DNA from: Mobula hypostoma
Lineage: Eukaryota
Reading direction: 5' to 3'
NCBI RefSeq assembly: GCF_963921235.1
Contig: NC_086108.1
Span: 61,754,001 to 61,818,000 of the forward strand
DNA length: 64,000 nt
The notes under the pieces were generated by a model, which saw only the letters and a list, made by a program, of their open reading frames with translations, had not been told where the DNA came from and did not search any database. Positions 559 to 61,586 of the stretch are shown here, one piece after another. Each line of letters starts with the position of its first letter. Positions within the stretch are counted from its first letter, which is position 1. A program made the position numbers and the translations under genes.

Positions 559-1670
559 AATTACCTAGCTCTCTGAACCTTTTGTAAGCTTTTCTTTTCT
601 TCTTGACTAGATTTATTACAGCCTTTGTACACCACGGTTCCTGTACCCTACCATAACTTCCCTGTCTCATTGGAACGTAACTATGTAAAACTCCACACAA
701 ATATCTCCTGAATATTTGCAACATTTCTTCTGTACTTTTCCCTGAGAACATCTGTTACCAATTTAAGCTTCCAATTTCCTGCCTCATAGCCTCATAATTC
801 CCCTTACTCCAATTAAACACTTTTCTAACTTGTCAGTTCCTATCTCTCTCCAATGCTATTGTAAAGGAGATAGAATTATGATCATTATCTCCAAAACGCT
901 CTCCCACTGTGAGATCTGACACCTGACCAGGTTCATTTCACAATACCAAATCAAGTACAGTCTCTCCTCTTGTAGGCTTATCTGTATATTGTGTCAAGAA
1001 ACCTTCCTCTACACACCTAACAAATTCCACCCCATCTAAACCTTGCTCTAGGGAGATGCCAATCGATATTTGCGAAATTAAAATCTCCGATCACGACAAC
1101 TCTGTTATTATTACACCTTCCCAGTATCTGTTTCCCTATCTGCTCCTCGATATCCCTGTTGCTATTGGGCAGCCTATAAAAAGCACCCAGTAAAGTTATT
1201 GACCCCTTCCTGTTCCTAACCTCCACCCACAGAGACTCCGTAGACAATCCCTCCATGGCATCCACCTTTTTTGCAGCTGTGACACTATCTCCGATCAACA
1301 GTGCCTTGCCCCCACCTCTTTCGCCTCCCTCCCTGTCCTTTCTGAAACATCTAAAACCCGGCACTTGAAGTAACCATTCCTGTCCCTGAGCCATCCAAGC
1401 CTCCGTAATGGCCACCACATCATGGCTCAAGAACTGATCCATGCTCTAAGCTCATCCACTTTGTTCACAACACTCCCTGCATTAAAATAAGCACATCTCA
1501 AACCATCGGTCTGAGCGCATCCCTTCTCTTTCACCTGCCTATCCTCCCTCTCACACTGTCTACAAGCTTTCTCTATTTGTGAGCCAACCACCTCTTCCCC
1601 AGTCTCTTCAGTTCAGTTCCCACCCCCAACAATTCTAGTTTAAACTCTCCCTGGTAACCTTAGCAAACCT
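559..1670 (-). mobile_element. CR1 LINE fragment, ORF2 APE-endonuclease region (degenerate)
   Basis: ORF 1017-1442 has VVAITEAW..., GFRCFR, FYRLPNS and VVVIGDFN motifs. ORF 551-751 (EPWCTKAVINLVKKKRKAY) is homologous to the CR1 at 43203-44366. Confidence 0.9.
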
Positions 1671-2472
1671 ACACCTCTGCTCTTTTTTCCATAAAAGGTT
1701 ATTCATCAGTGTTCTTCTCAATCCTGCTGTTCTTCCCAGTACAGCTGGAAACCTGGGATTCACTGATTCTGGCCTGCAAATATGCAGAGGATCATGTAGG
1801 TAGATATGGCAAGATTAACAGATCAACAGGGAGGTGGAGAGCCAAGCAACAAGGAGGCAGCAGAGCATACCAAAGGGACAGTGAGGAGGTGATGTCTGAA
1901 TGGCTGGAGTCATGGCATTTGTAATTTTTAAACCTATCAAAACCTGGCTATATATGATTAAAATAAAACGTTCACTCATGGGTGGCTCTTGGAAGTGGTT
2001 TAGATTGACTTAGCCAATGTGCACCTCTACTTCCCAAAGAAAAGTTTACCTGACACTAAGTGCAGAAACAAAATCAAATTGTAGAAAGTCTACTGACTTG
2101 AACATCTTGAGGGAGTAAAAAAAACAAGACCAAGAAAGACAAGACTTCATTCATTAATATTTCATGTAAAATCATAGGGAGAAAATGTTCATTGGAAAGG
2201 TCTTAATCACAATTTTTCAGTTACTTTCATTCAGTGTACACGTTCTGCAGCTTCTCCCATTACAACTGGAGGGTTTGAACTGTGGTTTTAGTGAAGTTAG
2301 TCTGCTTTGGAGTGTTCTGGAGAAAAATAATCCACAGAACTAAATCATTTTCTGAAAGATTTTATAGAATTGCAGTAACTTCCTGCCAAATGCAGTACTA
2401 TTCATGAAACCATGAAACAGTTATTTTAAATATTTCTCCACAATATAGGCTAGCATGCCCTACTGATAATGA

Positions 2473-2912
2473 CTGACTGACTGAGGCCTCTGTCAGTCAG
2501 AGCTGACTATGGCTATGGAGTCCTAACTGTATAGATACGCAAACCGAGGCAGTACAATATGGAGAGTAAGCTTTTGTCTAACAAGCTCCCCCCACCACAC
2601 AACTGATAAACCAAAGAAACAGCAGAGACCAATACAGTCTGGTACCAGCAGCATAGCAGGAGTTGTCAGTCAACATTGAACTCAATATAGGACTGCATTA
2701 GGGACTCCAGCTCTGGATTTTTCCCTCAGAGTTCACTCCCGAAGCCTTCCCCATGAGTGGGTATAGCCGCAAGGCAGCGGAGGTTTGAGATCAGAGTTTT
2801 CCTTCTCCGAGATGAGCTGCCAACCACAGTTGACGAGCCCCGTCTGCCTGAAGCGACTGGCATTAAGGCGCCAGTAGCCAGCCTTTGCCTCTTCTCCTGT
2901 CAGTAGAAACTG
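2473..2912 (-). mobile_element. RTE-clade-derived non-autonomous element (5'UTR-like sequence plus short tandem tail)
   Basis: Minus strand reads ...GGTTGGCAGCTCATCTCGGAGAAGGAAAACTCTGATCTCAAACCTCCGCTGCCTTGCGGCTATACCC..., resembling RTE 5' UTRs from recall. It terminates in (TCAG)n at 2473-2485 and has no ORF. Confidence 0.55.
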
Positions 2913-5454
2913 ATAATATTTTTACCTAATCTACTTTAGCACATAATCTTTTGTTCAGAAAAAGGTATGTTAAATGCAGCCAAATATATATATATATCTA
3001 TAATAAGTAATTAACTTTGGCTTCTGGCATGTTGTCTGGAAATTTGACATAGATATATTAAAAAAAACAAGTAAATAGCACTTATAAAGTAATGCACCAG
3101 ATTAATCTGCATGGTTATAATAGAACAAACCATGCCACAGCTCATGCCCAGAATTCCTCACTGTTTCACTGCAAGAAATTGTCGAATTAGTAATAACATT
3201 GAATACCTTGTATATGTAAAGTGTGGTCACAACAAACACAGTAATTTTGCCAACATTGATCAATAAAGATATCGATTCAAATTTCTATAATGGTCATATA
3301 GTTCATCTGAAAATATACATGCTATTGCTGAAGATGATCATTTTCCAAAAGTCTGGTCATTATTTCCTTGAGACCACAAAACATGTTTTTCTTCTTAATG
3401 TGGTCTTCAATGTTAATGGGGTCTTCAAGTTCTGAAGTGAGCAAAATTGTACTTCCTCAAACATTTTCCATTATTACCTTTCCTCCAGAAGAAACAGCAA
3501 TCCCCAAAGGAACATGGATATTTTTCTCATCAATATTTAAAAAGTCCACATAACATAGAGCAGCATAAGAACAACGTAGAGTTCCCTCTATTCTGCACTA
3601 GTAAGTTGCTGTGGACAAAACATAACATAATAGCACAAAAGAAAAAAAAACACCTAATATTTTCGAAGTAGGTTATTTTGTAATATTTTAAACCCTCCTC
3701 CCCGCTCCCAACGTCTTGCACATAATTACACTTTGGCAACAGTATCATTTATCAGACTCTGGCTCTTATGAACCCTTTATTCTGTTTACATTCACACAGC
3801 AAAGGTTAAATAATTAACACCAAACTATGGCAAATTGCTCAGCAGAAAATGTGAAATTATCATCACCTTCTGCCATCACCTCAGAAGGCAGAGAAAAAAT
3901 ACGTTAAGCTTCTTACTTTCTGTACAGAAATTTATAGATATGATAATATACAAATTAACATGATGATAATTAGATTATAACACTGGATGTGATAAATTTA
4001 ACATATGTGCACTGGTAGAAATTGAGGGAAAGTCCTTGGGATAGGAACTGTTCAACTTTCAGTTCTATAATGGAAGGACAATCTGGAATATCAATATGAA
4101 CAAGTTCAACAAGTTAAAAATCAAATCTAGGTGGAGAATACTGATCAGTCAATAAAAGGTCATTAAATTCTTCTTTAACAAGAAAGCATTTGTGAGACCA
4201 TCAATAAGTACTTCATCTATAAACATACTAAATATGATGACTGGTTTAATGGATATTCAGTTTAGGTAGGTTCCCTGCTGTCCTAGTTGGCATCGATACT
4301 GAAAGCAGTTTCATTCAACTGCCTATGGTTTTTAGTTCCTACATTCAAATCCACATCAAGGTTCAAACAAGTTCAGGAACTGTTGTCTTAGGTGAATGTA
4401 CATCATTTGGTGGCATTTCAAACAATTTTACAAACATGGGTCACTAGTTGTTAGAGTCACACAGTCATACATCATGGAAACAGCACCTTTAGCTCAACTG
4501 GTCCCAGCTGTCCAACGTCCATTTGCCTGCATTTAGCCCATATCCTTTGTGGCCCTTCTGACCCATATACCTGTCAATCTGTCTCTTAAATGTTGTTAAT
4601 CATTCTAATTTAAGCTCAGTGTTCTTTGTACTATACTTAACATTGATAATATGAACATACAAAAGATAGGACTTTAACATAATTAGAAGAAAGCTCCAGT
4701 TTATGGGGATCTGACATAAGAATATAAGAAAAATGAAACAGAACAAGACTAACAGATGCTTTGACTCTGCTCCATCTTCCTGTAGCTCCCCACCTGCATG
4801 CAGCTCAGGTCACTAACGTTGTATGATGGTCCTGCTGCTCCCCCAACACCCTCACTATTAATCGCGCCACACCTCTCCACCCACCTTTCATCTACCATAT
4901 CCCAACTAAAACACCACCATCAATCCCTCTTCTGTCTCTGCCTCCTCCAAGCCCCTTCCTCCCACCACATCATATCCTCAATCCTCCCCTCCACAACCTT
5001 CTTTGTGCAGGGGTACAAGGGCTTCACCTCTGTACCCCTGCACCCGCAGTTCAAAGTTCTAGTTCCAGTATAATGTTCAGCTCTTCTTCCATCCCCTTCA
5101 CATTTCTACAAGTCCTCCCATCCTTTCTCTTGTCACCAACACTCCTCTCCTTCTTGGACACCCCCTTCTGGCCTTTTACTCTCTCTCACCATTTTTATTT
5201 CCAATTACCGATGCAACATTAACCAACTTAACTTCTCCACTCTCCTCACCCACTCCAAACATGAAACTCTCCACTCGCTTGACCAATTGCAACCTTGACA
5301 TCAAAGCCGCAGATAAAGACTGTTCCATTAAGGTCTGGCAGACTGGCCGATACTGTGTAAATGCTGGAAGGTAGCTCTTGGGCATACCTACCCATCAACC
5401 CTTTAATCATGACCACACCAGTAATCATCAATTCACCATTTGTAGTACCTACAG

Positions 5455-5730
5455 CAGCCACTGCATCAAGAAAGCGACATCCATCATCAAAGATCTCCAC
5501 CATCTTATCACAGCTACCATCAGGGCATGAGGTACACAAGCCTAAAGACCCACACTACTAGGTTCAAGACCAACCTTGTCCTTTTAAACATTTTATTCTT
5601 GAACCATCCAGTAAAACCTTAATCAGCAGCACAGTTGGACAGAACCATGACTATTCTGATCACTATGCACTAAAATGAACTTTGTTTTGTTCTAAATGTG
5701 CCCCTTTTCTTGCTAGAACTGTGCATAATT
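5455..5730 (+). mobile_element. Rex1/Babar-type LINE 3' fragment nested in the PLE
   Basis: GAAAGCGACATCCATCATCAAAGA...CTACCATCAGGG...AGGTACACAAGCCTAAAGACCCACACTACTAGGTTCAAG matches the Rex1 3' ends at ~8060-8170 and ~63405-63520. Confidence 0.65.
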
Positions 5731-42830: not shown

Positions 42831-45800
42831 TGGGAGGGTGATCAGCCAGATGTCGTGGTGCACATCGGTACCAATGACATAGCAAGGAAGAGTGAGGAGG
42901 TCCTGGAGAGTGAGTATAGAGAGCTTGGTAGGAAGTTGAAAAGCAGGACCTCCAGGGTGGTAATCTCAGGATTTCTACCTGTGTTACGTGCCAGTGAGGT
43001 TAGGAATAGGATGCTCTGGAGGATGAACGAGTGGCTGAGGAACTGGTGTAGGGGGCAGGGTTTCAGATTTCAGGATAATTGGGTCCTCTTCTGGGGCAGG
43101 TGGGACCTGTACAAGAGAGACGGGTTACACTTGAACTACAGGGGGGACCAATATCCTTTCAGGAAGGTTTGTTAGTGCTATTGGGGAGGCTTTAAACTAG
43201 ATTTGCAGGGGGATAGGAACCAGAGTGCCAGAGCTGACAGTGTGGCTGGGGTGAAAATAAATGATGTTAAAAGTTCAAGCAAATCCGCTAATAGAAAGGT
43301 TGTGAGTGGTGGTAAAAATCTTCTGAGGTGTATATATTTCAATGCTGGGAGTATTGCGGGGAAGGCGGATGAGTTGAGGGCGTGGATTGACACGTGGAAT
43401 TATGACGTTATAGCAATTAGTGAAATTTGGCTACAGGAGGGGCAGGACTGGCAGTTTAATATTCCAGGGTTCCGATGTTTCAGATGTGATCGAGGCAGAG
43501 GAATGAAAGGTGGGGGAGTAGCATTGCTTGTTAGGGAAAATACTACAGCAGTGCTCAGGCAGGACAGATCAGAGGGTTTGTCTACTGAGTCCTTATGGGT
43601 GGAGCTGAGAAACAGGAAAGGTATGGCCACATTAGTGGGATTGTATTACAGACCACCCAATAGCCAACGAGAATTGGAAGAGCAAATCTGCAGAGAGATA
43701 GCAGGCAACTGCAGGAAACATAAAGTTGTGGTGGTAGGGGATTTTAATTTTCCATATATTGATTGGGACTCTCATACTGTTAGGGGTCTAGATGGTTTAG
43801 AGTTTGTAAAATGTGTTCAGGAAAGTTTTCTAAATCAATATATAAAGGGACCAACTGGAGGGGATGCAATATTGGATCTCCTGTTAGGAAACGAGTTAGG
43901 ACAAGTGACGGAAGTCTGTGTAGGGGAGCACTTTGGTTCCAGTGATCATAACACCATTAGTTTCAACTTGATCATGGACAAGGATAGATCTGGTCCAAGG
44001 GTTGAGGTTCTGTACTGGAAGAAGGCCAAATTTGAAGAAATGAGAAAGGATCTAAAAACCGTGGATTGGGACAGGTTATTCCCTGGCAAGGATGTGATTG
44101 GTAGGTGGGAAGCCTTCAAAGGAGAAATTTTGAGTGTGCAGAATTTGCATGCTCCTGTCAGGATTAAAGGCAAAGTGAATAGGAATAAGGAACCTTGGTT
44201 CTCAAGGGATATTGCAACTCTGATAAAGAAGAAGAGGGAGTTGTATGACATGTATAGGAAGCAGGGAGTAAATAAGGTGCTTGAGGAGTATAAGAAGTGC
44301 AAGAAAATACTTAAGAAATCAGGAGGGCTAAAAGAAGACATGAGGTTGCATTGGCAGTCAAAGTGAAGGATAATCCAAAGAGCTTTTACAGGTATATTAA
44401 GAGCAAAAGGATTGTAAGGGATAAACTTGGTCCTCTTGAAGATCAGAGTGGTCGGCTATGTGTGGAACCAAAGGAAATGGGGGAGATCTTAAATAGGTTT
44501 TTTGCGTCTGTATTTACTAAGGAAACTGGCATGAAGTCTATGGAATTAAGGGAAAGAAGCAGTGAGATCATGGAAACTGTACAGATCGAAAAGGAGGAAG
44601 TCCTTGCTGTCTTGAGGAAAATTAAAGTGGATAAATCCCCGGGACCTGACAGGGTGTTCCCTCGGACCTTGAAGGAGACTAGTGTTGAAATTGCAGGGGG
44701 CCCTGGATGAAATATTTAAAATGTCGCTGTCTACAGGTGAGGTGCCGGAGGATTGGAGAGTGGCTCATGTTGTTCCGTTGTTTAAAAAAGGATCAAAAAG
44801 TAATCCGGGAAATTATAGGCCAGTAAGTTTAACGTCGGTAGTAGGTAAGTTATTGGAGGGAGTACTAAGAGACAGAATCTACAAGCAGTTGGATAGACAG
44901 GGACTTATTAGGGAGAGTCAACATGGCTTTGTACGTGGTGGGTCATGTTTGACCAATCTATTGGAGTTTTTCGAGGAGGTTACCAGGAAAGTGGATGAAG
45001 GGAAGGCAGTGGATATTGTCTACATGGACTTCAGTAAGGCCTTTGACAAGGTTCCGCATGGGAGGTTAGTTAGGAAAATTCATTCGCTAGGTATACATGG
45101 AGAGGTGGTAAATTGGATTAGACATTGGCTCAATGGAAGAAGCCAAAGAGTGATAGTAGAGAATTGCTTCTCCGAGTGGAGGCCTGTGACTAGTGGTATG
45201 CCACAGGGATCAGTGCTGGGTCCATTGTTATTTGTCATCTATATCAATGATCTGGATGATAATGTGGTAAATTGGATCAGCAAATTTGCTGATGATACAA
45301 AGATTAGAGGTGTAGTAGACAGTGAGGAAGGTTTTCAGAGCCTGCAGAGGGATTTGGACCAGCTGGAAAAATGGGCTGAAAAATGGCAGATGGAGTTTAA
45401 TACAGACAAGTGTGAGGTATTGCACGTTGGAAGGACAAACCAAGGTAGAACGTACAGGGTTAACAGTAAGACACTGAGGAGTGCAGTGGAACAGAGGGAT
45501 CTGGGAATACAGATACAAAATTCCCCAAAAGTGGCGTCACAGGTAGATAGGGTCGTAAAGAGAGCTTTTGGTACATTGGCCTTTATTAGTCAAAGTACTG
45601 AGTATAAGAGCTGGAATGTTATGATGAGGTTGTATAAGGCATTGGTGAGGCCGAATCTGGAGAATTGTGTTCAGTTTTGGTCACCAAATTACAGGAAGGA
45701 TATAAATAAGGTTGAAAGAGTGCAGAGAAGGTTTACAAGGATGTTGCCAGGACTTGAGAAACTCAGTTACAGAGAAAGGTTGAATAGGTTAGGACTTCAT

Positions 45801-46193
45801 TCCCTGGAGCGTAGAAGAATGAGAGGAGATTTGATAGAGGTATATAAAATTATGATGGGTATAGATAGAGTGAACACAAGCAGGCTTTTTCCATTGAGGC
45901 AAGGGGAGAAAAAAAACCAGAGGACATGGGTTAAGGGTGAGGGGGCGAAAGTTTAAAGGGAACATTAGTGGGGGTTTCTTCACACAGAGAATGGTGGGAG
46001 TATGGAATGAGCTGCAAGACGAGGTGGTAAATGCGGGTTCTTTTTTAACATTTAAGAATAAATTGGACAGATACATGGATAGGAGGTGTATGGAGGGATA
46101 TGGTCCGCGTGCAGGTCAGCGGGACTAGGCAGAAAATGGTTTGGCACAGCCAAGAAGGGCCAAAAGGCCTATTTCTGTGCTGTAGTTTCTATG
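42831..46193 (+). mobile_element. CR1 LINE, 5'-truncated but long: C-terminal ORF1 (SGNH esterase) plus complete, frameshifted ORF2 (APE + RT)
   Basis: ORF1 has VVHIGTNDI...DGLHLN (SGNH blocks III and V). ORF2 has LRCIYFNA, GDFNFP, SDHN, KSPGPD, DFSKAFD, PQGSVLGP and KFADD (45282-45296). Frame breaks near 44315, 44700 and 45910. Tail GTTTCTATG. Confidence 0.97.
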
Positions 46194-48527: not shown

Positions 48528-50147
48528 AAAAAGGAGGAGGTGCTTGCTGTCTTGAGGAAAATTAAAGTGGATAAATCCCCGGGACCTGACAGAGTGTTCC
48601 CTCGGACCTTGAAGGAGACTAGTGTTGAAATTGCGGGGGCCCTGGCAGAAATATTTAAAATGTCGCTGTCTACAGGTGAAGTGCCGTAGGATTGGAGAGT
48701 GGCTCATGTTGTTCCGTTGTTTAAAAAAGGATCGAAAAGTAATCCGGGAAATTATAGGCCGGTGAGTTTAACGTCAGTAGTAGGTAAGTTATTGGAGGGA
48801 GTACTTAGAGACAGAATCTACAAGCAGTTGGATAGACAGGGGCTTATTAGGGAGAGTCAACATGGCTTTGTGCGTGATAGGTCATGTTTGACCAATCTGT
48901 TGGAGTTTTTCGAGGAGGTTACCAGGAAAGTGGATGAAGGGAAGGCAGTGGATATTGTCTACATGGACTTCAGTAAGGCCTTTGACAAGGTCCCGCATGG
49001 GAGGTTAGTTAGGAAAATTCAATCACTATGTATACATGGAGAGGTGGTAAATTGGATTAGACATTGGCTTGATGGAAGAAGCCAGAGAGTGGTGGTAGAG
49101 AATTGCTTCTCTGAGTGGAGGCCTGTGACTAGTGGTGTGCCACAGGGATCAGTGCTGGGTCCATTGTTATTTGTCATCTATATCAATGATCTGGATGATA
49201 ATGTGGTATATTGGATCAGCAAGTTTGCTGATGATACAAAGATTGGAGGTGGAGTAGACAGTGAGGAAGGTTTTCAGAGCCTGCAGAGGGACTTGGACCA
49301 GCTGGAAAAATGGGCTGAAAAATGGCAGATGGAGTTTAATACTGACAAGTGTGAGGTATTGCACGTTGGAAGGACAAACCAACTTAGAACATACAGGGTG
49401 AATGGTAAGGCACTGAGGAGTGCAGTGGAACAGAGGGATCTGGGAATACAGACACAAAATTCCCTAAAAGTGTCGTCACAGGTAGATAGGGTCGTAAAGA
49501 GAGCTTTTGGTACATTTCCTTTATTAATCAAAGTATTGAGTATAAGAGCTGGAATGTTATGATGAGGTTGTATAAGGCATTGATGAGGCCGAATCTGGAG
49601 TATTGTGTTCAGTTTTGGTCACCAAATTACAGGAAGGATATAAATAAGGTTGAAAGAGTGCAGAGAAGGTTTACGAGGATGTTGCCGGGACTTGAGAAAC
49701 TCAGTTACAGAGAAAGGTTGAATAGGTTAGGACTTTATTCCCTGGAACGTAGAAGAATGAGGGGAGATTTGATAGAGGTATATAAAATTATGATGGGTAT
49801 AGATAGAATGAATGCAAGCAGGCTTTTTCCACTGAGGCAAGGGGAGAAAAAAACCAGAGGACATGGGTTAAGGGTGAGGGGGAAAAAGTTTAAAGGGAAC
49901 ATTAGGGGGGTGCTTCTTCACACAGAGAGTGGTGGGAGTATGGAATGAGCTGCCAGACGAGGTGGTAAATGCGGGTTCTTTTTTAACATTTAAGAATAAA
50001 TTGGACAGATACATAGATGGGAGGTGTATGGAGGGATATGGTCCGTGTGCAGGTCAGTGGGACTAGGCAGAAAATGGTTCAGCACAGCCAAGAAGGGCCA
50101 AAGGGCCTGTTTCTGTGCTGTAGTTTCTATGGTTCCATGGTTCTATG
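48528..50147 (+). mobile_element. CR1 LINE, 5'-truncated RT/3' end, same subfamily as 42831-46193
   Basis: Near-identical to ~44589-46193. ORF 48699-49562 contains KFADD. (GTTCTATG)n-type tail. Confidence 0.97.
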
Positions 50148-52061: not shown

Positions 52062-53095
52062 AATGGTATAGGCCAATAACACACCATAATACCCAAGTCC
52101 GTTTTCAGTACCTTTAAAGTTGATGCTTTTCTGTGTTTTTATTTTCAATATTGGACAAAGTAATCAAATTGAATTTAAAGGTATTAATAAAGTGTATGAG
52201 GTAATAACAGTAAGATATATAAAAATAAAATTTCAATCCCTCCAGCCACTTCACTGCTGGTTTTATAATTAACCACATTTTCTAAGGGATATTTAGCCTT
52301 CTCACCACAGATCTCATATGTAAAAAACGCAGGAGCTTTGTGAATACAATCAAATGGAAATCATTTGATTTCAATACTGCTGTTATTTTGCTGCCTTACC
52401 TTTCAGCCACACTTCCCATCACATTCATTAACCAGGATTTTACAGATCCTGATACAACAATTTTAAGTTCTATTTGAACAGTTCCTAACCTGTATATAGA
52501 TAAAGTTGTGTACACCTGTTGAAACCACTGGCCTAGAATTTATGTTGCACAACCTAAGGAAATGGTGTGGTGTAGCTGAAATAGTTTTAATCTTGAGTAC
52601 AGCTATCTTGTGTTTTAGTTCCAGACAGGAAATTCAAGTTTGATTGTTATTTACACTAACACATTTTCCCTGGCATATAACTATCCTATATTACATTGCC
52701 CATAGCACAAGGCCCATATATTATCTGTAGAATGATTTTCAACCATAGTGAATCTGGAGCAAGGGGTTATAACCTCAGGATGAAATTAGAATTTAGATGA
52801 AAAGGAACTTCTCCTCTCAAAGGGTTGCAAATATTTTGGAATTCTCCACCCCAAAGAGATGTACATGAATTGTTATTAAATCTATACTAATTGAAATGAC
52901 AAGCATTTTAGACCATGAGATCAAGTGATTCAGATGGGGAAGTGGAGCTAAGGTGAATAATTGGATCAACCACGATCCTACTGACCAGCAGAGTAGGCTC
53001 AAGAGGCCATATGGATCTCTCTTGTTCCTCTTTCTCATGCTTTTACATAAAGAAGGACACAAAATCACCAGTATTGATTTGAAAGCAGAGGCCAT

Positions 53096-53325
53096 TTATG
53101 TGCATCTAATACTTCAGTAATATTGAAAATATACTGATTGTATTTGTGTTCATTTAAATAATTAATTACTGATTATATGTAAAAATCCGTTAATTGCATA
53201 CATCATCGCTCTACCTCATGATACGTGTGCGCCTCGCTTAAAGATGAAGGTACAACTGTATTCTTCCCAGACTCCCATGTTTCCATTTCAATTAGTTTAA
53301 TATTTTGAAGCTACAAAACATAACA
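53096..53325 (+). mobile_element. Isolated LTR related to the Gypsy LTRs at 55171-55317 and 57483-57713
   Basis: TGTGCATCTAATACTTCAGTAATATTG ... TTTTGAAGCTACAAAACATAACA aligns by eye with the 57483-57713 LTR and ends in ...AACA. Confidence 0.7.
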
Positions 53326-53436
53326 TCTTCAATCCATCATTTTGGCCTGGTGGAATGGCTATTGAACTGCTGCTATTGAGAAAGTCTGTTTTGTGCTTAA
53401 GGAGGATGAATGCCATCATCACTCTCACTTTCTGTA

Positions 53437-54680
53437 ATAGACAATAGGTGCCATTCGACCCTTCGAGCCAGCACCGCCATTCACTGTGATCATGGCTGAT
53501 CATCCACAATCTGTATCCAGTTCCTGCCTTATCCCCATAACCTTTGATTCCACTATCTTTAAGAGCTCTATCCATCTCTTTCCTGAAAGCATCCAGAGAC
53601 TTGGCCTCCACAGCCTTCTGGGGCAGAGCATTCCATACATCCACCACTCTTTGGGTGAAAAAGTTTTTCCTCAACTCCATTCTAAATGGCCTACCCCTAA
53701 TTCTTAAACTGTGGCCTCTGGTTCTGGACTCACCCATCAGCGGGAACATGCTTCCTGCCTCCAGCGTGTCCAATCCCTTAATAATCTTATATGTTTCAAT
53801 AAGATCCCCCCTCAGCCTTCTAAATTCCAGAGTATACAAGCCCAGTCACTCCGATCTTTCGACATATGACAGTCCCGCCATCCCGGGAATTAACCTTGTG
53901 AACCTGTGCTGCACTCCCTCAATAGCAAGAATGTCCTTCCTCAAATTTGGAGACCAAAACTGCACACAGTACTCCAGGTGTGGTCTCACCAGGGCCCTGT
54001 ACAGCTGCAGAAGGACCTCTTTGCTCTTGTACTCAATTCCCCTTGTTATGAAGGCCCCCATGCCATTAGCTTTCTTCACAGTCTGCTGTACTTGCATGCT
54101 TGCTTTCAGTGACTGATGTACAAGAACACCTAGATCTCGTTGTACTTCCCCTTTTCCTAACTTGACTCCATTTATATAATAATCTGCCTTCCTCTTCTTA
54201 CCACCAAAGTGGATAAACTCACATTTATCCACGTTAAACTGCATCTGCCATGCATCTGCCCACTCACCCAGCCTGTCCAAGTCACCCTGCATTCTCATAA
54301 CATCCTCCTCACATTTCACACTGCCACCCAGATTTGTGTCATCGGCAAATTTGCTAATGTTACTTTTAATTCCCTCATCTAAATCATTAATATATATTGT
54401 AAACAGCTGCTGTCCCAGCACTGAACCCTGCAGTACCCAACTGGTCACCACCTGCCATTCCGAAAGGGACCCATTAATCGCTACTCTTTGTTCTCTGTCA
54501 GCCAGCCAATTTTCAATCCATGTCAGTACTCTGCCCCCAATACCATGTGCCCTAATTTTGCCCACTAATCTCCTATGCGGGACTTTATCAAGGGCTTTCT
54601 GAAAGTCCAGGTACACTACATCCACTGGCTTTCCCTTGTCCATTTTCATAGTTACATCCTCAAAAAAATTCCAGAAAAAA
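53437..54680 (-). mobile_element. CR1 LINE RT/3' end
   Basis: ORF 53846-54685 has YLDFQKALD, QGSVLG, KFADD and LVRPHLEYCVQFWSP. ORF 53297-53839 carries the CR1 C-terminus. Confidence 0.95.
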
Positions 54681-55040
54681 TCCAAAAAATGGTAATCCCA
54701 AATCCCTGTCTGAAAATCTAAGCGTTGACACTGAACAAACTATCCACTGGCTGACACGTAAAAGAAAACATATGAACGTTGTGGTCATCATGTCCAGTCA
54801 CAAGCTCCCCTTTACGTGGCTGCAAAAATCCAGGCAAACAGCTTCCTCAATGGCTCAATTATGTATGGAAATATAATCTGTTGTCATATTGTTACAAATT
54901 TTTGCCTTATATGACATTTTAATTAGAAGTTGTTTTTTTTTAAATAAGCGTATAAATAGAAGCAGGAGTAGGCCATTTAACCTTTCATTCAATAATACAG
55001 CCATTCACAAAAATTATGGACCATTATTTACCCTACATAT

Positions 55041-57713
55041 AAGGACAGAACTGAACCATTCTCCTACACAGTGGAGATTGAGTCTGATATCATCGAGAGA
55101 CAACACATCGATCAGTAGAGGAGAGCAGAGTCAATCTATAGAGAAGCAAGTTGGCTACTGCTATCAGACCAGTTTAAGTACTTTATTACGGGTTCTATGT
55201 ATAAATATATGAATTGCCTATGTCAAGTGCCTTGCTTAAAGTAAACACAAAGTTAGACCCCATTTCGGACTCCTGCATCTTCCTCTGAATTAGTTTAAAG
55301 TTTTGAAGTTGCAAAACGAGGTTTTTTAAGACAAACCTGATATTACTACCGACCTATTGAAATGCAGTGAGGAATGGTCAAGTTTCAAAATAAAGCAGCA
55401 CAGCATATGTTCTTCAGAAGGGAAGACATGGTCGAGTTTAAAGACAGAAAACAGAAGAATTCACAGGTTCATAAACAGTGAGCACCAGGTGATAATAATC
55501 ATAAATAAAAGCAGAACAGGCTGGCTACATCAGAAAGATAGACACTTTTGATTACTCAGTGGGTAACAGGCTCATGCATACTGAGCTAACTGAACAGTAT
55601 TTTGAAACAAATGAAATAGCCAATGAGAAACAAGTGCCTGTTTTGCTGAGTGCATTGGGTTTAAAGTTTACTTCAACGTTTAACTGCAGCAACCAAATCA
55701 GTAGAAATGACCTTTGCTGATATTGTGAAAGTAATGCAGGAACATTTAGAATGAAGCCTTTATTGATGGCAGAATATTGAGGTTTCATAAGTGGAATCAA
55801 AAGGAAGGCGAGTCCATTTCAGTGTATGTGGCTGAATTGAAGAGATTGTCTGAGCTTTGTCAGTTCGGTAATGGGCTTAATGATATACTGAGCATTTAGT
55901 TTGTGGAATCGTACAAGAATGCATTCAAAAATGGCTCTTAACTGAGCCACAGCTTACATTTAAAAGTGCAGTTAAAATTGCTGTATCAATGGAAACAGCT
56001 GACAGAGACACAATTCAGTTGCAGTTGGGAATGAAAGTGAGTATGAACAAAATTGAAATACCTTAACAAAAACCAGCCTGGCTGAACCAGTTATGTTACT
56101 GTTGTGGCAGGGGCTCACATTCACTAGATGAATGTAGGTTTAAAGACGAAACTTGCAGAAAATGCAATAACGTATGTCACATACAAAGAGCATATAAGGC
56201 AGACAAAAATAAGTGGTCCGCACAGGGAAGAGACAAAGCTAAAAACTCAAGCTGTAGTTTAAAAAAGAGCACTAATCTGTACGCTGTTGATGAAAAGTCT
56301 GTTAATGATGAGAGTGCCTTTAGATTTACAAAATGAAATCTGACAATAGACAATCAATATGGCTTACACCAGAAGTGAACAGCAAATTGGACACTTGCTC
56401 AGCTGTTTCAGTCATTCCACAAAATGAGTCTGAATGGCATTTCAAAGATACAGAACTGAAGTCTGCAGATATCCAACTAAGACCTTATACAGGAAACAAG
56501 GTAACTCTTGGGGAATGACATTTGTATTAGTGAAATGCAACAACCAACAAGCCACATTGAGCTTGTAAGTGGTAAAAACAGGAGGACTAGCACTGTGGAG
56601 GCATGATTGTCTGAGGCAACTACAATTTGATTGGAGATCCATCCATCGCCTGCATGCCACAGCCCCTGTAACAGTCAATTGAAAGCAGATCAAGAAAGAT
56701 ACTGGATGATTCCACAACTGTCTCCATGATGCACACCATGAACCATTCCTCAATAGAGAGTAAAAAGGGTTGGATCTGACCTCTGCGCCTCTGGTTGGAA
56801 AGCATATTGGACCAAGGAATGACTATGCTGCTCAGAAGGATTGTGAAAGTGATAAAAGCAGTGTCCAACTACAATAGATTTTATAGGCAACATATCTGAG
56901 AAAGCTACTGATTTCTTAATCTGGCAGTTACTTGCAAAATGTGGCTTGATGTTAAACTGGTGGAGAGTTCAAAGAGCTTCAGGAAAGCTGCAAGCATTTA
57001 GCTTTTGTGAGTATAAGCAATTGAATCTACTCTGCGTGCATTAAGGTTATTGTATGACCTTCAAGTGGGAGGCAAGGAGCTGCTTGTAAAAGTGGATGCA
57101 AAGACCGAAGCCCAGCTGGATGAATGGAAGGCCAAAAAGAAAGGAGTCAATGAGATACATAAACAGAATATTCATCAGATTATGTCAGAACCACTTTGCG
57201 CAGTCCCAGAGTCAACTCCTACAACCACCACTGAGGAGGCCCCAGAACCTCAACTTCCACCTGTCAAACAGAGTGATCTCCCGTGTCAGGAAAGACATTA
57301 TTCCAAAAGAGAAAAAATCCTCCACAGTGATTAAATCTCTGGACCTGAATGGGACAATTTAACATTTACTATGTTGTGGATGATGTGGATGTCTGTATAT
57401 AGTAGTTGTATTATATAGTATTCTGTGTATAGTTGAGATGCTTTCTATATTGAGTTGGAACTTACAGCCATACAGGGAGAAGTTTGTGTATTTAATATTT
57501 CGGTAATATGGTAAATATATTGTTTGATGAAGTATTCTTGTTTGTTTAAATAATTCATTATGGATTGTATGCATAAATACATGAAGTGCATACTTTATCA
57601 CGCTACCACGTAATATGTACGCACCCTAAGTAAACACTGAGTTAGACTCACATTTCAGACTCCGGTGCCTTCCTTGGAATTATCTTAATGTTTTTAAGTT
57701 ACAAAACTTAACA
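55041..57713 (+). mobile_element. Degenerate Ty3/Gypsy LTR retrotransposon: pol-3' fragment, partial LTR (55171-55317), gag, protease, captured RBM25 fragment, pol tail, PPT, LTR (57483-57713)
   Basis: Gag reads AGYIRKIDTFD...EQYFETNEIANEKQVPVLLSALG from 55520 and QKEGESISVYVAELKRLSELCQFG. Zinc knuckles CYCCGRGSHSLDEC / CRKCNNVCHIQRAY (56094-56195). Protease LDTCSAVSVI (56387). Pol tail ...CQERHYSKR. Purine tract AGGGAGAAG directly before the 3' LTR. Confidence 0.9.
56779..57183 (+). pseudogene. RBM25: Processed (intron-less) fragment of RNA-binding motif protein 25 (RRM domain), inside the Gypsy element
   Basis: Translation with 1-nt frameshifts near 56863 and 57021: TSAPLVGKHIGPRNDYAAQKDCESDKSS/PTTIDFIGNISEKATDFLIWQLLAKCGLMLNWWRVQRASGKLQAFSFCEYKQ/ESTLRALRLLYDLQVGGKELLVKVDAKTEAQLDEWKAKKKGVN. 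This matches the recalled vertebrate RBM25 sequence (VGKH...GPTTTVFVGNISEKASDMLIRQLLAKCGLVLSWKRVQGASGKLQAFGFCEYKEPESTLRALRLLHDLQIGEKKLLVKVDAKTKAQLDEWKAKKK). Confidence 0.93.
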
Positions 57714-57734
57714 ACCATGTCATTATATCTATAA

Positions 57735-58510
57735 GAATACTTGCCATTACAAGCTCAGTGTGCTTGCCATAACTCAGGCCGTTGCAACCCTGAAATTTTG
57801 CCTTTGGCTTCCTCACGCTTGCCGCAGGGAGTGTCTGTAACACCAGTTTCTCTGCAGTCCATGCTTGTAGTAAACAAATAACTGATGTCCTGCTTGAGAG
57901 AGCAAACACATTCGGCAATTTCTCCATGGATGTCCTAGGACTCTGGGGCTTGCACAGATTGCAGGATTCCCTCAGGTCTCTGGTGTCATTGACTTGACTC
58001 ATGTTGCTCCTTCACAAAACATGACTAGTTTCATAAATCACAGGACTTTCACTCTATTAATGTGTGTCTAGTGCGTGGTTCAGGTCTGTGCCTGCTTTCC
58101 TGGCAATAATGCTTTGATATTGAGGCAATCACACAGTTCCTATTGTTCTCTCTTACACATGGAGCTGAAGACTAACAGCATATCCCTTGCACAATTGTTT
58201 TATGACTCTTCACAGAAATCCACACTCAGTTGTACTACTGCTGTTATTAGATTAATGAGTAAGCTAGAACCTAATAGTCTGTAAAGGACTGCTCAAATTC
58301 CTGCATAGATCTGTCAACATCCTGCAGGAAAAAGTGCTTCATATAATTCTGATTTGCTATATGCTGTCTAAAGTGAAAACACTACGAGAGAAGAACAATT
58401 AGCATGATGAGCATATTGATAATGAGCATTGAACAGGAGGAAGGCAAAGGTTTCCTGCAGTTAGAGGAATTCAAAGAAAACACCAACTGAAGAAATCTTG
58501 ATCCTCTGCC
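57735..58510 (+). mobile_element. Fossil PIF/Harbinger DDE transposase (HARBI1-family-like), fragmented
   Basis: Collinear motifs across frameshifts: AVHACSKQITDVLLERANTF, IAGFPQVSGVIDLTHVA (~57958-58008), FINH../FHSINVCLV, VCACFPGNNALILRQS, AYPLHNCFMTLHRNP and GLLKF...IILICYML. Confidence 0.85.
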
Positions 58511-58924: not shown

Positions 58925-61586
58925 TTATGCTCACAAGTCACTGCTAGATATTCACTGCTAGACCAAATACTGCAAGTCTACCTCACGGGTGAGTTGTTGG
59001 ACAGCAGATGAGCTCGCGAGGATGGGCGTATTGCCTGTCAGCCAACCGCGTTGTTACCTGCTACAGCTGCTTCTGTCAGAAGCGGTGCGCAAGGAAACAA
59101 AAGCGTGGTAAGTGCATTGGTGGCATTCATGCGAGACTAGAGGCAAAATCCTGCAGGCCAGCTCTCCCGTCAATTCCTCTTTCAAATATCCAATCTCTAG
59201 AAAATAAACTGTGCCCGAGACTGAATCAGCATGAGATGAAAGACTGCTGCACACTGATTCTGACAGAAACATGGCTCCAAGATATCACCCCGGAAGTGGC
59301 CATCCAGTTAGAGGGCTTCATCTCTTTTTGGGCTGACAGAATTCCTGCACTCTCTGGCGAGACCTGCAGTGGAAGTGTATGTATCTATGTCATTAAGAAT
59401 GGTTTGTGAACACTTTGGTGATGATGACCCCCTGTTGGCCTATGGTAGATTTCTTAGAGGTGAAGTGCAGACCCTTCTATTTACCAAGGGTGATCACTGC
59501 TACTGTGATTGTGGCTGTATACATCTCTCACGTGCTAATACTGGGGAAGCACTGTGTGAGCTCTACAGTGCCATGGAGCAAACCACACAACTCGATGGTT
59601 TCTTCGAGTTGTTGCTAGCAACTTCAGGATATCGAGGACATCCCCATTATTAAACACATCTTTGTGAGGACAAATCAGAAGCCATGGTTGACAGCAAAGG
59701 TCCGGGCATTGCTGAGAGACTGGGATGCTGCCTTCCTATCGGGGGATAAAACAGCTCTCAGTCTGCATAAGCTGTGCTTTCCTGTGCTTTCCTGATGGAA
59801 GGCAAAATAGGATTGTTCACAGAGAGTATACGGCCATTTCTGTGACACCAGATATATAAGGCGCACGTGGCAGGGCATAGCGGACTGCCCTGTGCATCAG
59901 CAACATTGAAGCTTCTCCTTCTGATAGGCTGAATGATTTTTATGCTTGGTTTGATGCATTGAACGATGTGCCAGAGAGGAAGGTCCCCCTTCCGTCTGAG
60001 GAGCAGGCACTCTGTCTGCGACTGATTGTGAGGAAGACCCAGGCCAAGGTCAACCCAGGTAAAGCCGCGGAGCCTGATGACATACCTGGTCAGGTGCTGA
60101 GGGACTGTGCATCTCGGTCAACAGAGATTCAAACAGACATCACCAACATCTCTCTGGAACAGTCCACTGTCCCCTCAGGCTGCAAGGAGGCCACCATCAT
60201 CCCAGTACCCAAGACAGCCACAGTAACCTGTCTCAATTATGACTGTCCAGTGAAGTGCTTTGAGCAGCTGGCTATAGATCACATTAAATCCCATCTTCCT
60301 ACTATATTGGGCCCTTTCCAGTTTGCTTATCACTTAAATTGGTCTACTGATGATGCACCCCACTTCATCATGTGCCTGATATGACAAGATCCTTCATGTG
60401 GCAAGATGTCATTTATCAACTTCAGCTCAGCATTTAATACAATCATCCCTCAAAAGCTGGTGGATAAACAGTCCGCGTCTCAACATCTCTTCACTGTAAC
60501 TGGATCCTGGACTTGCTGACAGAAAGGCCACAGTCAGTACGTGTTGGCAGAAACACCTCGAGCTCCATCACACTGAGCACCAGCACTCCCCAGGGATGCA
60601 TGCTCAGCCCGCAGCTGTTCACACTGCTGACGCATGACTGCACTGCTGGATCAGGTTCAAACTGAGTAACCAAGTTCGCTGATGATACAACAGTGACTGG
60701 CCTCACCAAGCAATGGTGACAAAACGGCTTATAGGGAGGAGGTAGAGTGGCTTGTAGAATGGTGCAAGCACGACAACTGGAGTCTCGTAGTGGACAAGAC
60801 CAAAGAGATGATTGTGGATTTTTGGACTGTGCAGGCTGACCACTCCTCATTGCACATAGACAACACCTCCATGGAGAGAGTTAGGGGCACTAAGTTTCTG
60901 GGAATGTACATTATCGACGATCTCACCTGGTCCCTCAACGCCATCTCATTGGTCAAGAAAGAACAGCAGTATTTCCACTTCCTGAGGAGATTGAGGTGAG
61001 TGAGGTGAGTGAAGTGAGTGAGGCTCTCCCACCCCACCACCCATTCTAATCACTTTTTTACAGGAGCATGACTAAGTGTGTTCTGACCAGCTATATCACC
61101 GTCTGGTATGGGCATTGCAAAGTATCTGATCTGAAGTCTCAAAAACGGATTGCAAGTCCTTTTGAGAGGGACATTAGGATCTCTCTTTCACCCATTAGAG
61201 ATACTTATAAGGAGCGCTACATATACAGGGCTTTAGCATTGCAAACATCCCTCCCATCTACCTTACAATCTCTTTGATCCCCTACCATCAGGCACTAGAA
61301 CAAGAACTGTTAGGATGGGAAACAGCTTCTTCTCCAGGCCATCGGGCTTCTGAACTCCCTGCCACCACCCTGGTCTCATCACACATGAAGTGCCAGTAGG
61401 ATTATACTGTTTACTTTTTAACTTGTGTTGTAAATGTATCTTATTATTTCTTAATTTATTTGTGATAATATTACTTCATGTGTTACGTGTACTGTCCTTG
61501 GTCCAGAGGAACACTGCTTCAGTTGGTGGTATACATGTTCAGTTTTAATTCAATAACTATTAACTGAACTTGATTTTGAACTTGAA
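58925..61586 (+). mobile_element. Rex1/Babar-type LINE, near end-to-end but internally deleted and degenerate
   Basis: KRCARKQKRGK...RPALPSI.LSN.QSLENK...LTETWL (APE), [34 protein letters not shown] and KFADDTTV (60672-60695). (TGAACT)n tail. Confidence 0.9.

Follow-up and report, generated by a model that had tools for sequence, protein, structure and literature searches.

An RBM25 insert in a decayed Gypsy element

The stretch of DNA analysed here (the window; 64,000 nt of a Mobula hypostoma contig, G000:C50:61754001-61818000) contains a decayed Ty3/Gypsy long terminal repeat (LTR) retrotransposon into which part of the messenger RNA (mRNA) of the host gene RBM25 has been incorporated. Three-frame translation of positions 55000-57760 gives a decayed gag, zinc knuckles, a protease, an RRM-like stretch and the C-terminal tail of pol, and the insert sits in frame behind gag-protease, at the place where reverse transcriptase (RT), RNase H and integrase would be. 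This is an old, decayed and dead copy of an RBM25-carrying Gypsy family, which, according to DNA searches run over the 3.48-Gb genome, arose from one founding chimera that was amplified to about 2,000-2,700 copies.

The identity of the insert, proposed in a preliminary description of the sequence, was confirmed with the less damaged sister copy L020, in which an open stretch of 140 aa matched RBM25 proteins at 64-77% identity (best E 2.6e-59), all named matches being RBM25 or hypothetical or unnamed proteins. The Pfam family RRM_1 was found in the same stretch at E 3e-7 and in the window's own piece at just E 0.004, and searches of PDB sequences returned generic RRM matches at E 0.0014 or worse, or none. 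Spliced host RBM25 aligns to window positions 56710-57185 (mRNA positions 162-641) with 64 mismatches in 463 aligned nucleotides, about 86% identity. The insert is free of introns and crosses five exon junctions, from the tail of exon 3 to the start of exon 7, as expected of the spliced source that had been proposed, and it has four net 1-nt frameshifts, near 56768, 56862, 57018-57022 and 57151. The preliminary description, which gave the insert as 56779..57183, placed its start about 70 nt too late, missing the exon-3 tail and a cassette exon.

The host gene lies on the minus strand of contig C1. A search by PWI family gave three matches, none of them RBM25, and the gene was located with a C-terminal RBM25 protein query; the 10 exons used are all bounded by AG/GT and their spliced frame is open. 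The 48-nt cassette is a real exon: it is AG/GT-bounded in the host gene, contigs of runs X1, X3 and X7 have it joined to exon 4 by splicing, and its peptide is identical in RBM25 isoforms of Heptranchias perlo, being absent among the 54 bony-fish and tetrapod-type proteins listed. Intron 3 (L144) holds two short in-frame alternative exons, of 30 nt (G000:C1:99837505-99837476) and 48 nt (99832633-99832586), both present in spliced joints. The 30-nt exon, which lies between exon 3 and the cassette and is used in present-day joints, is absent from the captured copies; no direct joint of exon 3 to the cassette occurs among the 15 joints listed out of 64, and protein P0217 has this captured join. 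Two LTRs of the same Gypsy family were also seen about 36 kb and 66 kb upstream of RBM25 exon 2, in opposite orientation (G000:C1:99876647-99876890 and 99906403-99906636).

The parent-family copies L127, L130, L142 and L143 contain Pfam protease, RVT_1, RT_RNaseH, Integrase_H2C2 and rve pieces in Gypsy order; the family has the traits of Ty3/Gypsy (the order protease-RT-RNase H-integrase, TG...CA LTRs, a polypurine tract and a short target-site duplication (TSD)), and one named homolog is 'K02A2.6-like'. When P0218, a homolog with gag-pol in a single open reading frame (ORF), was used as reference, the window covered residues 2-394 only, in agreement with the earlier remark that a pol core is lacking, and residues 500-999 (RT/RNase H) were covered by none of the 101 chimeric copies and by 11-18 of 18 parent copies. 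The chimera therefore does not encode the RT, RNase H and integrase core that an autonomous Gypsy element needs. Sister copies have a conserved motif directly after the 5' LTR, a putative primer-binding site, which is deleted in the window copy; of the cis sequences previously described as retained, the polypurine tract (in decayed form) and the 3' LTR are indeed present, the 5' LTR and the primer-binding site being partly deleted.

Table 1. Features of the chimeric element and of the related sequences upstream of it (positions in the window)
Feature	Position	Strand	Remarks
Upstream LTR, same family	53096..53325	+	73-74% to 3' LTR, matches parent LTRs; no primer-binding site after it; link to chimera uncertain
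Integrase C-terminal tail remnant, parent-type (non-chimeric), directly before 5' LTR	55040..55168	+	77-82% to pre-tail region of parents L128, L130, L142, L143
5' LTR remnant of chimera	55172..55317	+	about 80% to 3' LTR in two blocks; 5' part, last bases and primer-binding site deleted
Decayed gag (stops, frameshifts)	55523..56315	+	tblastn to P0218 aa 2-264, E 9e-39; two zinc-knuckle-like motifs at about 56094-56195
Decayed aspartic protease and protease-RT linker, to switch site	56315..56709	+	P0218 aa 273-394; parents align to 56716, then RT
5' capture junction, last 10 nt of RBM25 exon 3	56710..56719	+	first 7 nt (TGCCACA in family; one mismatch here) common with Gypsy linker; in-frame fusion
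RBM25 48-nt in-frame cassette exon	56720..56767	+	host C1:99832633-99832586; 81% identity
RBM25 exon 4, RRM start about 56874	56768..56936	+	85% to host exon
RBM25 exon 5 (RRM)	56937..56994	+	83% to host exon
RBM25 exon 6, RRM end about 57100	56995..57153	+	91% to host exon
RBM25 exon 7, first 32 nt	57154..57185	+	cut by deletion private to window copy
Gypsy pol C-terminal tail and 3' untranslated region	57186..57473	+	67-75% to parent tails; stop at 57332-57334
Polypurine tract, decayed	57474..57482	+	sister copies have the same purine tract ahead of 3' LTR
3' LTR	57483..57713	+	family LTR about 247 bp, TG...CA

Founding capture and amplification of the chimera

Because sister copies have 150-600 nt more of RBM25, the 3' join of the window copy (about 57185) is a later private deletion; position 57184, earlier given as the approximate start of the pol tail, does not mark the founding join. 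As reconstructed from sister copies, the founding capture comprised about 1,070 nt with eight exon junctions, from mRNA position 162 to about 1233. At the 5' join the Gypsy linker and RBM25 exon 3 have the exact 7-nt word TGCCACA in common at the switch. A search for the parent-type word (Gypsy linker with a next base other than A) gave 378 matches, and in 23 of the 25 loci fetched the sequence runs on into RT, or begins to do so before an interruption, the other two being a deleted chimera and an unrelated sequence. At the 3' join, long copies keep RBM25 to about mRNA position 1233, in exon 10, and then pass into the pol tail via GAGAAGAAA, a 9-nt microhomology present in both RBM25 and the Gypsy parent. 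Neither a polyA tail nor a duplication was found around the insert at the founding joins, and the Gypsy pieces that flank it lie about 3 kb apart in the parents, so that internal ORFs were replaced. Microhomology at both joins, together with the lack of polyA and of an insert TSD, therefore fits a double template switch. We rejected a capture spliced from an LTR upstream, since the cassette comes after 10 nt of exon 3 and the join lies within that exon, at a microhomology.

What we take to be CR1-type long interspersed elements (LINEs) are plentiful in the window, and a processed pseudogene made by a LINE (CR1 or L1) could in principle have inserted into a Gypsy copy whose pol was deleted separately. 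The insert, however, stops in the middle of the coding sequence in exon 10, with at least 7 downstream coding exons absent, it lacks polyA and duplication, its Gypsy flanks are about 3 kb apart in the parents, and both of its ends overlap words common to gene and element, which makes this origin extremely improbable. None of the three observations named beforehand as speaking against the preliminary reading (a top match other than RBM25, a fragment from one exon or with intron sequence, a polyA tail and TSD of its own) was made.

It is impossible to set apart, on sequence alone, a founder made at the DNA level, in which an RBM25 complementary DNA (cDNA) or retrocopy recombined with a genomic Gypsy element, or patched a break in it, by microhomology, followed by the same amplification, since microhomology-mediated repair leaves the same short words as RT switching. 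A free cDNA or retrocopy would be needed in this case, and none with exons before mRNA position 162 or past about 1235 was seen among the 101 copies or the best 150 protein matches. Moreover, sense orientation and clean replacement of internal ORFs are the pattern of template switching in the portion of the literature on LTR-mediated retrocopies available to us (PMC5131818). We consider a DNA-level founder very unlikely, and both this and LINE insertion fit worse than template switching.

That the family has a single origin is indicated by the same breakpoints recurring at hundreds of loci scattered over the genome, no two of which share their flanks. A DNA search with positions 56700-57260 gave 3,198 first-look candidates, and 39 scored places besides the window were 81-84% identical over query positions 1-486, spanning the join of Gypsy and insert. 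An exact 25-mer across the 5' join occurs at 118 loci, 60 of which were fetched. As a check independent of the join, 40 of the 405 loci bearing a word from exons 6 and 7 were fetched: in 28 of them the Gypsy linker stands immediately before this 5' breakpoint, in 3 it borders a short deletion, and in 9 the 5' end is lost or interrupted. Real upstream mRNA, or sequence past about 1235, was found in none of these 40.

Two 18-mers across exon junctions have 289 and 405 exact matches genome-wide and none for the reversed-pattern controls. As each occurs in 9 of the 60 join-bearing copies, mark-recapture gives 1,927 (95% 1,088-4,073) and 2,700 (95% 1,524-5,708) copies, estimates that are biased low, the 18-mers having been picked post hoc from 13 candidates on the same 60 copies and rates being heterogeneous. 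Compared with each other on three contigs, the two words overlap at 11 loci among 60 and 91, from which 2,209-2,391 copies are estimated, with the same downward bias. Words at the switch site are of chimera type in 224 cases vs 378 of parent type, which puts the chimera at roughly a third of the family at this site; some of the 224 will be mutated parents. Marks of transposition were also found: a 5-bp TSD matching at 4 or more of 5 bases flanks 7 of 13 two-ended chimeras vs 1.5% of mismatched pairs, and the two LTRs of a chimera differ by 17% (n=12). With common breakpoints and a copy number of this order, the amplification in trans suggested at the outset is borne out, and we regard capture followed by amplification as highly probable.

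It is reasonable to suppose that a spliced RBM25 mRNA (exon 3, cassette, exon 4) was packaged once in a Gypsy particle in the germ line of a cartilaginous-fish ancestor. During minus-strand synthesis RT would have jumped from the integrase end to RBM25 exon 10 at the 9-nt common word, copied about 1,070 nt of RBM25, and jumped back into the protease-RT linker at the 7-nt common word. The product would still have had LTRs, a primer site, gag-protease, the pol tail and a polypurine tract, but no RT, RNase H or integrase, and would have spread non-autonomously on the enzymes of the parent family to about 2,000-2,700 copies. Sublineages would have lost pieces of the insert's purine-rich 3' half before all examined copies decayed neutrally, and the insert would have been a passenger, the success of the element coming from its short length and intact cis signals. 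What the data show is the spliced structure, the junctions, the single origin, the high copy number, the LTRs and TSDs and the neutral decay. We infer co-packaging, template switching, trans-mobilisation and passenger status from the joins and from the history of the copies, and a double template switch in a shared particle, with subsequent trans-mobilisation of a passenger insert, is in our judgement probably correct.

The gag-protease regions of chimeras and parents differ at just 6 sites. A gag variant is of parent type in 3 of 49 chimeras and of chimera type in 2 of 12 parents, and the three chimeras are as recombination in shared particles would give. A T-run in the pol tail was also seen to have 4-5 T in 15 of 31 chimeric matches (e.g. 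L068, L075 and L109) and 3 T in 4 of 4 parents; this polymorphism may be the sign of a subfamily or of recurrent recombination with the parents.

Later decay and the role of the insert

The distance from exon 7 to the pol tail could be measured in 66 of the 101 copies, 35 being left out for insertions or losses, and is 107-176 nt in 33 copies, 205-293 nt in 18 and 339-696 nt in 15, the host message having 624 nt. A deletion joining mRNA positions 751 and 871 is found in 25 of these 66 copies, and other shared deletions form a cluster on its 3' side, breakpoints in the purine-rich region being ambiguous; the breakpoints of gaps in the RRM half differ copy by copy. The 751-871 deletion ends at, or at most 1 base from, the first base of exon 9, and there is no GT donor at its start. 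In one copy, L102 (G000:C9:130771098-130775722), the insert appears internally duplicated or rearranged, mRNA positions 593-773 being followed by 263-764.

Copies diverge from the host by 14% overall and by 9.7% once CpG and shared sites are set aside, and all classes of copies are alike in this respect. Private changes comprise 1732 non-synonymous (111 stops among them) and 524 synonymous ones, with an omega of 1.10 against the mutation spectrum, and are the product of neutral decay. A conserved outlier was not found among the best 150 of 5,629 protein-level candidates, which are 62-85% identical, 15 of the 150 being without stops. With the frameshifts in the window copy, the omega of 1.10 and no outlier among these 150, the intact ORF and purifying selection that characterise a functional retrogene or a domesticated element were not observed. 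A chimeric protein was not seen in the protein database, which is weak evidence because the copies are decayed.

Differences from the host that are common to at least 60% of the copies comprise 19 synonymous and 1 non-synonymous change (451 non-synonymous sites), as predicted by purifying selection on the host gene alone, and at the single non-synonymous site the copies agree with Heptranchias and not with P0217. The number of shared synonymous changes is not significantly above that given by the age of the copies (P = 0.10), and therefore amplification probably took place soon after the capture. Only two sites diagnostic of subfamilies were found.

An alternative with the same origin supposes that the RBM25 piece aided the spread, either as a Gag-protease-RRM fusion or a released RRM that helped RNA packaging or export, or as exonic RNA acting as a stabilising or export signal. 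In its favour are the in-frame 5' join, the fact that no frameshift specific to the chimeras was seen in gag-protease (the stretch of gag suspected of one measures 43 nt in 32 of 49 chimeras and in 9 of 12 parents), the position of all shared deletions past mRNA 750, 3' of the RRM, with only individual gaps in the RRM half, the single shared non-synonymous difference from the host, and the high share of chimeras in the family. The first three weigh against the passenger part of the explanation we prefer, as does the fact that the 19:1 differences are unassignable to host or element without an outgroup. Also to be counted against that explanation are the lack of an intact helper copy among the parents fetched, which are all decayed, a poor TSD match (3 or fewer of 5 bases) in 6 of 13 elements, and a copy number that is an estimate with ranges as wide as 1,088-5,708.

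That the join is in frame and that shared deletions spare the RRM do point to a helpful insert, but both are accounted for by chance and by a sequence prone to slippage. One join in three is in frame by chance, and in the part of the fly survey at our disposal 14 of 17 cases have in-frame ORFs (PMC5131818); the deleted half is a purine-rich, low-complexity sequence that slips easily, and the shared deletion found most often in it (119 nt) puts the sequence behind the RRM out of frame. As the shared synonymous changes do not go beyond host drift over the age of the copies, selection may have had little time to act on a master copy, and both subfamily-diagnostic sites are non-synonymous. We therefore find a helpful insert unlikely. 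Similarly doubtful is that an in-frame Gag-protease-RRM product or an RNA cis signal gave an enzyme-less Gypsy element a transposition advantage that took it to a third of its family's copies, or that an essential host gene became a target of small-RNA silencing through the thousands of inserts homologous to RBM25.

In run X7 (presumed RNA; the intron of its source organism is about 5% different, plus gaps), diverged contigs join the cassette to exon 4, a weak hint that relatives share the chimera family. Among the sequencing runs listed as containing the sequence, none is on record as RNA.

Within the window, a parent-type integrase tail (55040-55168) stands ahead of the partial 5' LTR, and the chimera is therefore in tandem behind a parent remnant. 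Positions 53091-57718 could represent a three-LTR tandem unit (upstream LTR, parent integrase tail, shared partial LTR, chimera), the outer flanks at 53091-53095 and 57714-57718 matching at 4 of 5 bases; against such a unit, a CR1 piece and unrelated DNA intervene and the upstream LTR is without a primer site. Additional LTR pieces within or just upstream of gag-protease were observed in L004, L016, L019, L006 and L085, which suggests that tandem or nested forms are common in the family. LINE copies which we take to be of CR1 type lie at 43176-45956 and 48690-49948 on the plus strand and at 53440-54739 on the minus strand, the first of which, its endonuclease and RT frames being open over 396 and 427 aa, looks young. 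A short way 3' of the element, at 58993-61049 (+), are decayed LINE-like fragments, presumably of endonuclease and RT, from another family. No tRNA gene was found in the window.

Relation to known captures of host genes

A single LTR-mediated capture of a host mRNA can thus become a major vertebrate repeat family, at a copy number hundreds of times above the cases compared below. Its approximately 2,000 neutrally decayed copies preserve an old splice isoform of RBM25, with a cassette exon that a distant shark has conserved as well. They document the shrinking of non-autonomous elements and can serve shark and ray phylogeny as a neutral clock and as presence/absence markers. They will also cause false expansions of the RBM25 gene family and mis-mapped reads in such genomes. 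With this family it can be tested whether host sequence captured by a retroelement is favoured by selection or simply tolerated. Searches of the open literature did not turn up a paper that connects RBM25 with a family of this kind, which may already be catalogued in Repbase or Dfam as an unnamed repeat.

Acutely transforming (transducing) retroviruses carry an in-frame fusion of gag to a piece of a host coding sequence (gag-onc), have lost replication genes and need a helper. The RBM25 chimera resembles them in its in-frame gag fusion, loss of replication genes and helper dependence, and differs from them in having no env, no sign of a selected captured gene and a spread by germ-line retrotransposition; moreover, its 5' join is a microhomology inside an exon, unlike a splice from an upstream provirus.

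The closest parallel is provided by LTR-mediated retrocopies (Tan 2016), which, as far as the accessible text goes, consist of partial spliced mRNA in place of internal ORFs with both LTRs kept, show microsimilarity at both switch points (median 6 bp) and no polyA or TSD at the insert, and can re-transpose as non-autonomous elements (PMC5131818). The RBM25 chimera shares with these the loss of introns, the replacement of internal ORFs, microsimilarities of 7 and 9 nt and further retroposition. According to the same portion of that work, nine fly retrocopies account for 18 insertion sites, two being multi-site, and 3-10 retrocopies per species are given for mosquito, zebrafish, chicken, human and mouse, sharks being unmentioned there (PMC5131818). 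In contrast, the copies that one event gave rise to here number about 2,000 or more and fall into deletion subfamilies nested within each other.

In crocodilians, endogenous retroviruses (ERVs) have captured KIT-ligand (CrocERV29) and nectin3 (CrocERV31), which the sections available describe as old events common to related species, with nine and six copies, respectively (Chong et al. 2014, PMC4299795). As in the present case, a host mRNA entered an LTR element that kept replicating. On the evidence of those sections, the CrocERVs are retroviruses that retain pol and carry near-whole ORFs under purifying selection (PMC4299795), whereas the RBM25 family is Gypsy, has lost its pol core, carries a partial cDNA in neutral decay and reached hundreds of times more copies. 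Maize Bs1 and other plant genes captured by LTR elements likewise contain transduced pieces of host genes in sense orientation, and in the part of that source at hand the transduced ORFs stay at one or few copies (PMC7264820), unlike the vertebrate, high-copy chimera described here. Judged against what could be consulted of these sources, the mechanism is already known (PMC5131818) and the scale is beyond the compared cases of few to nine copies.

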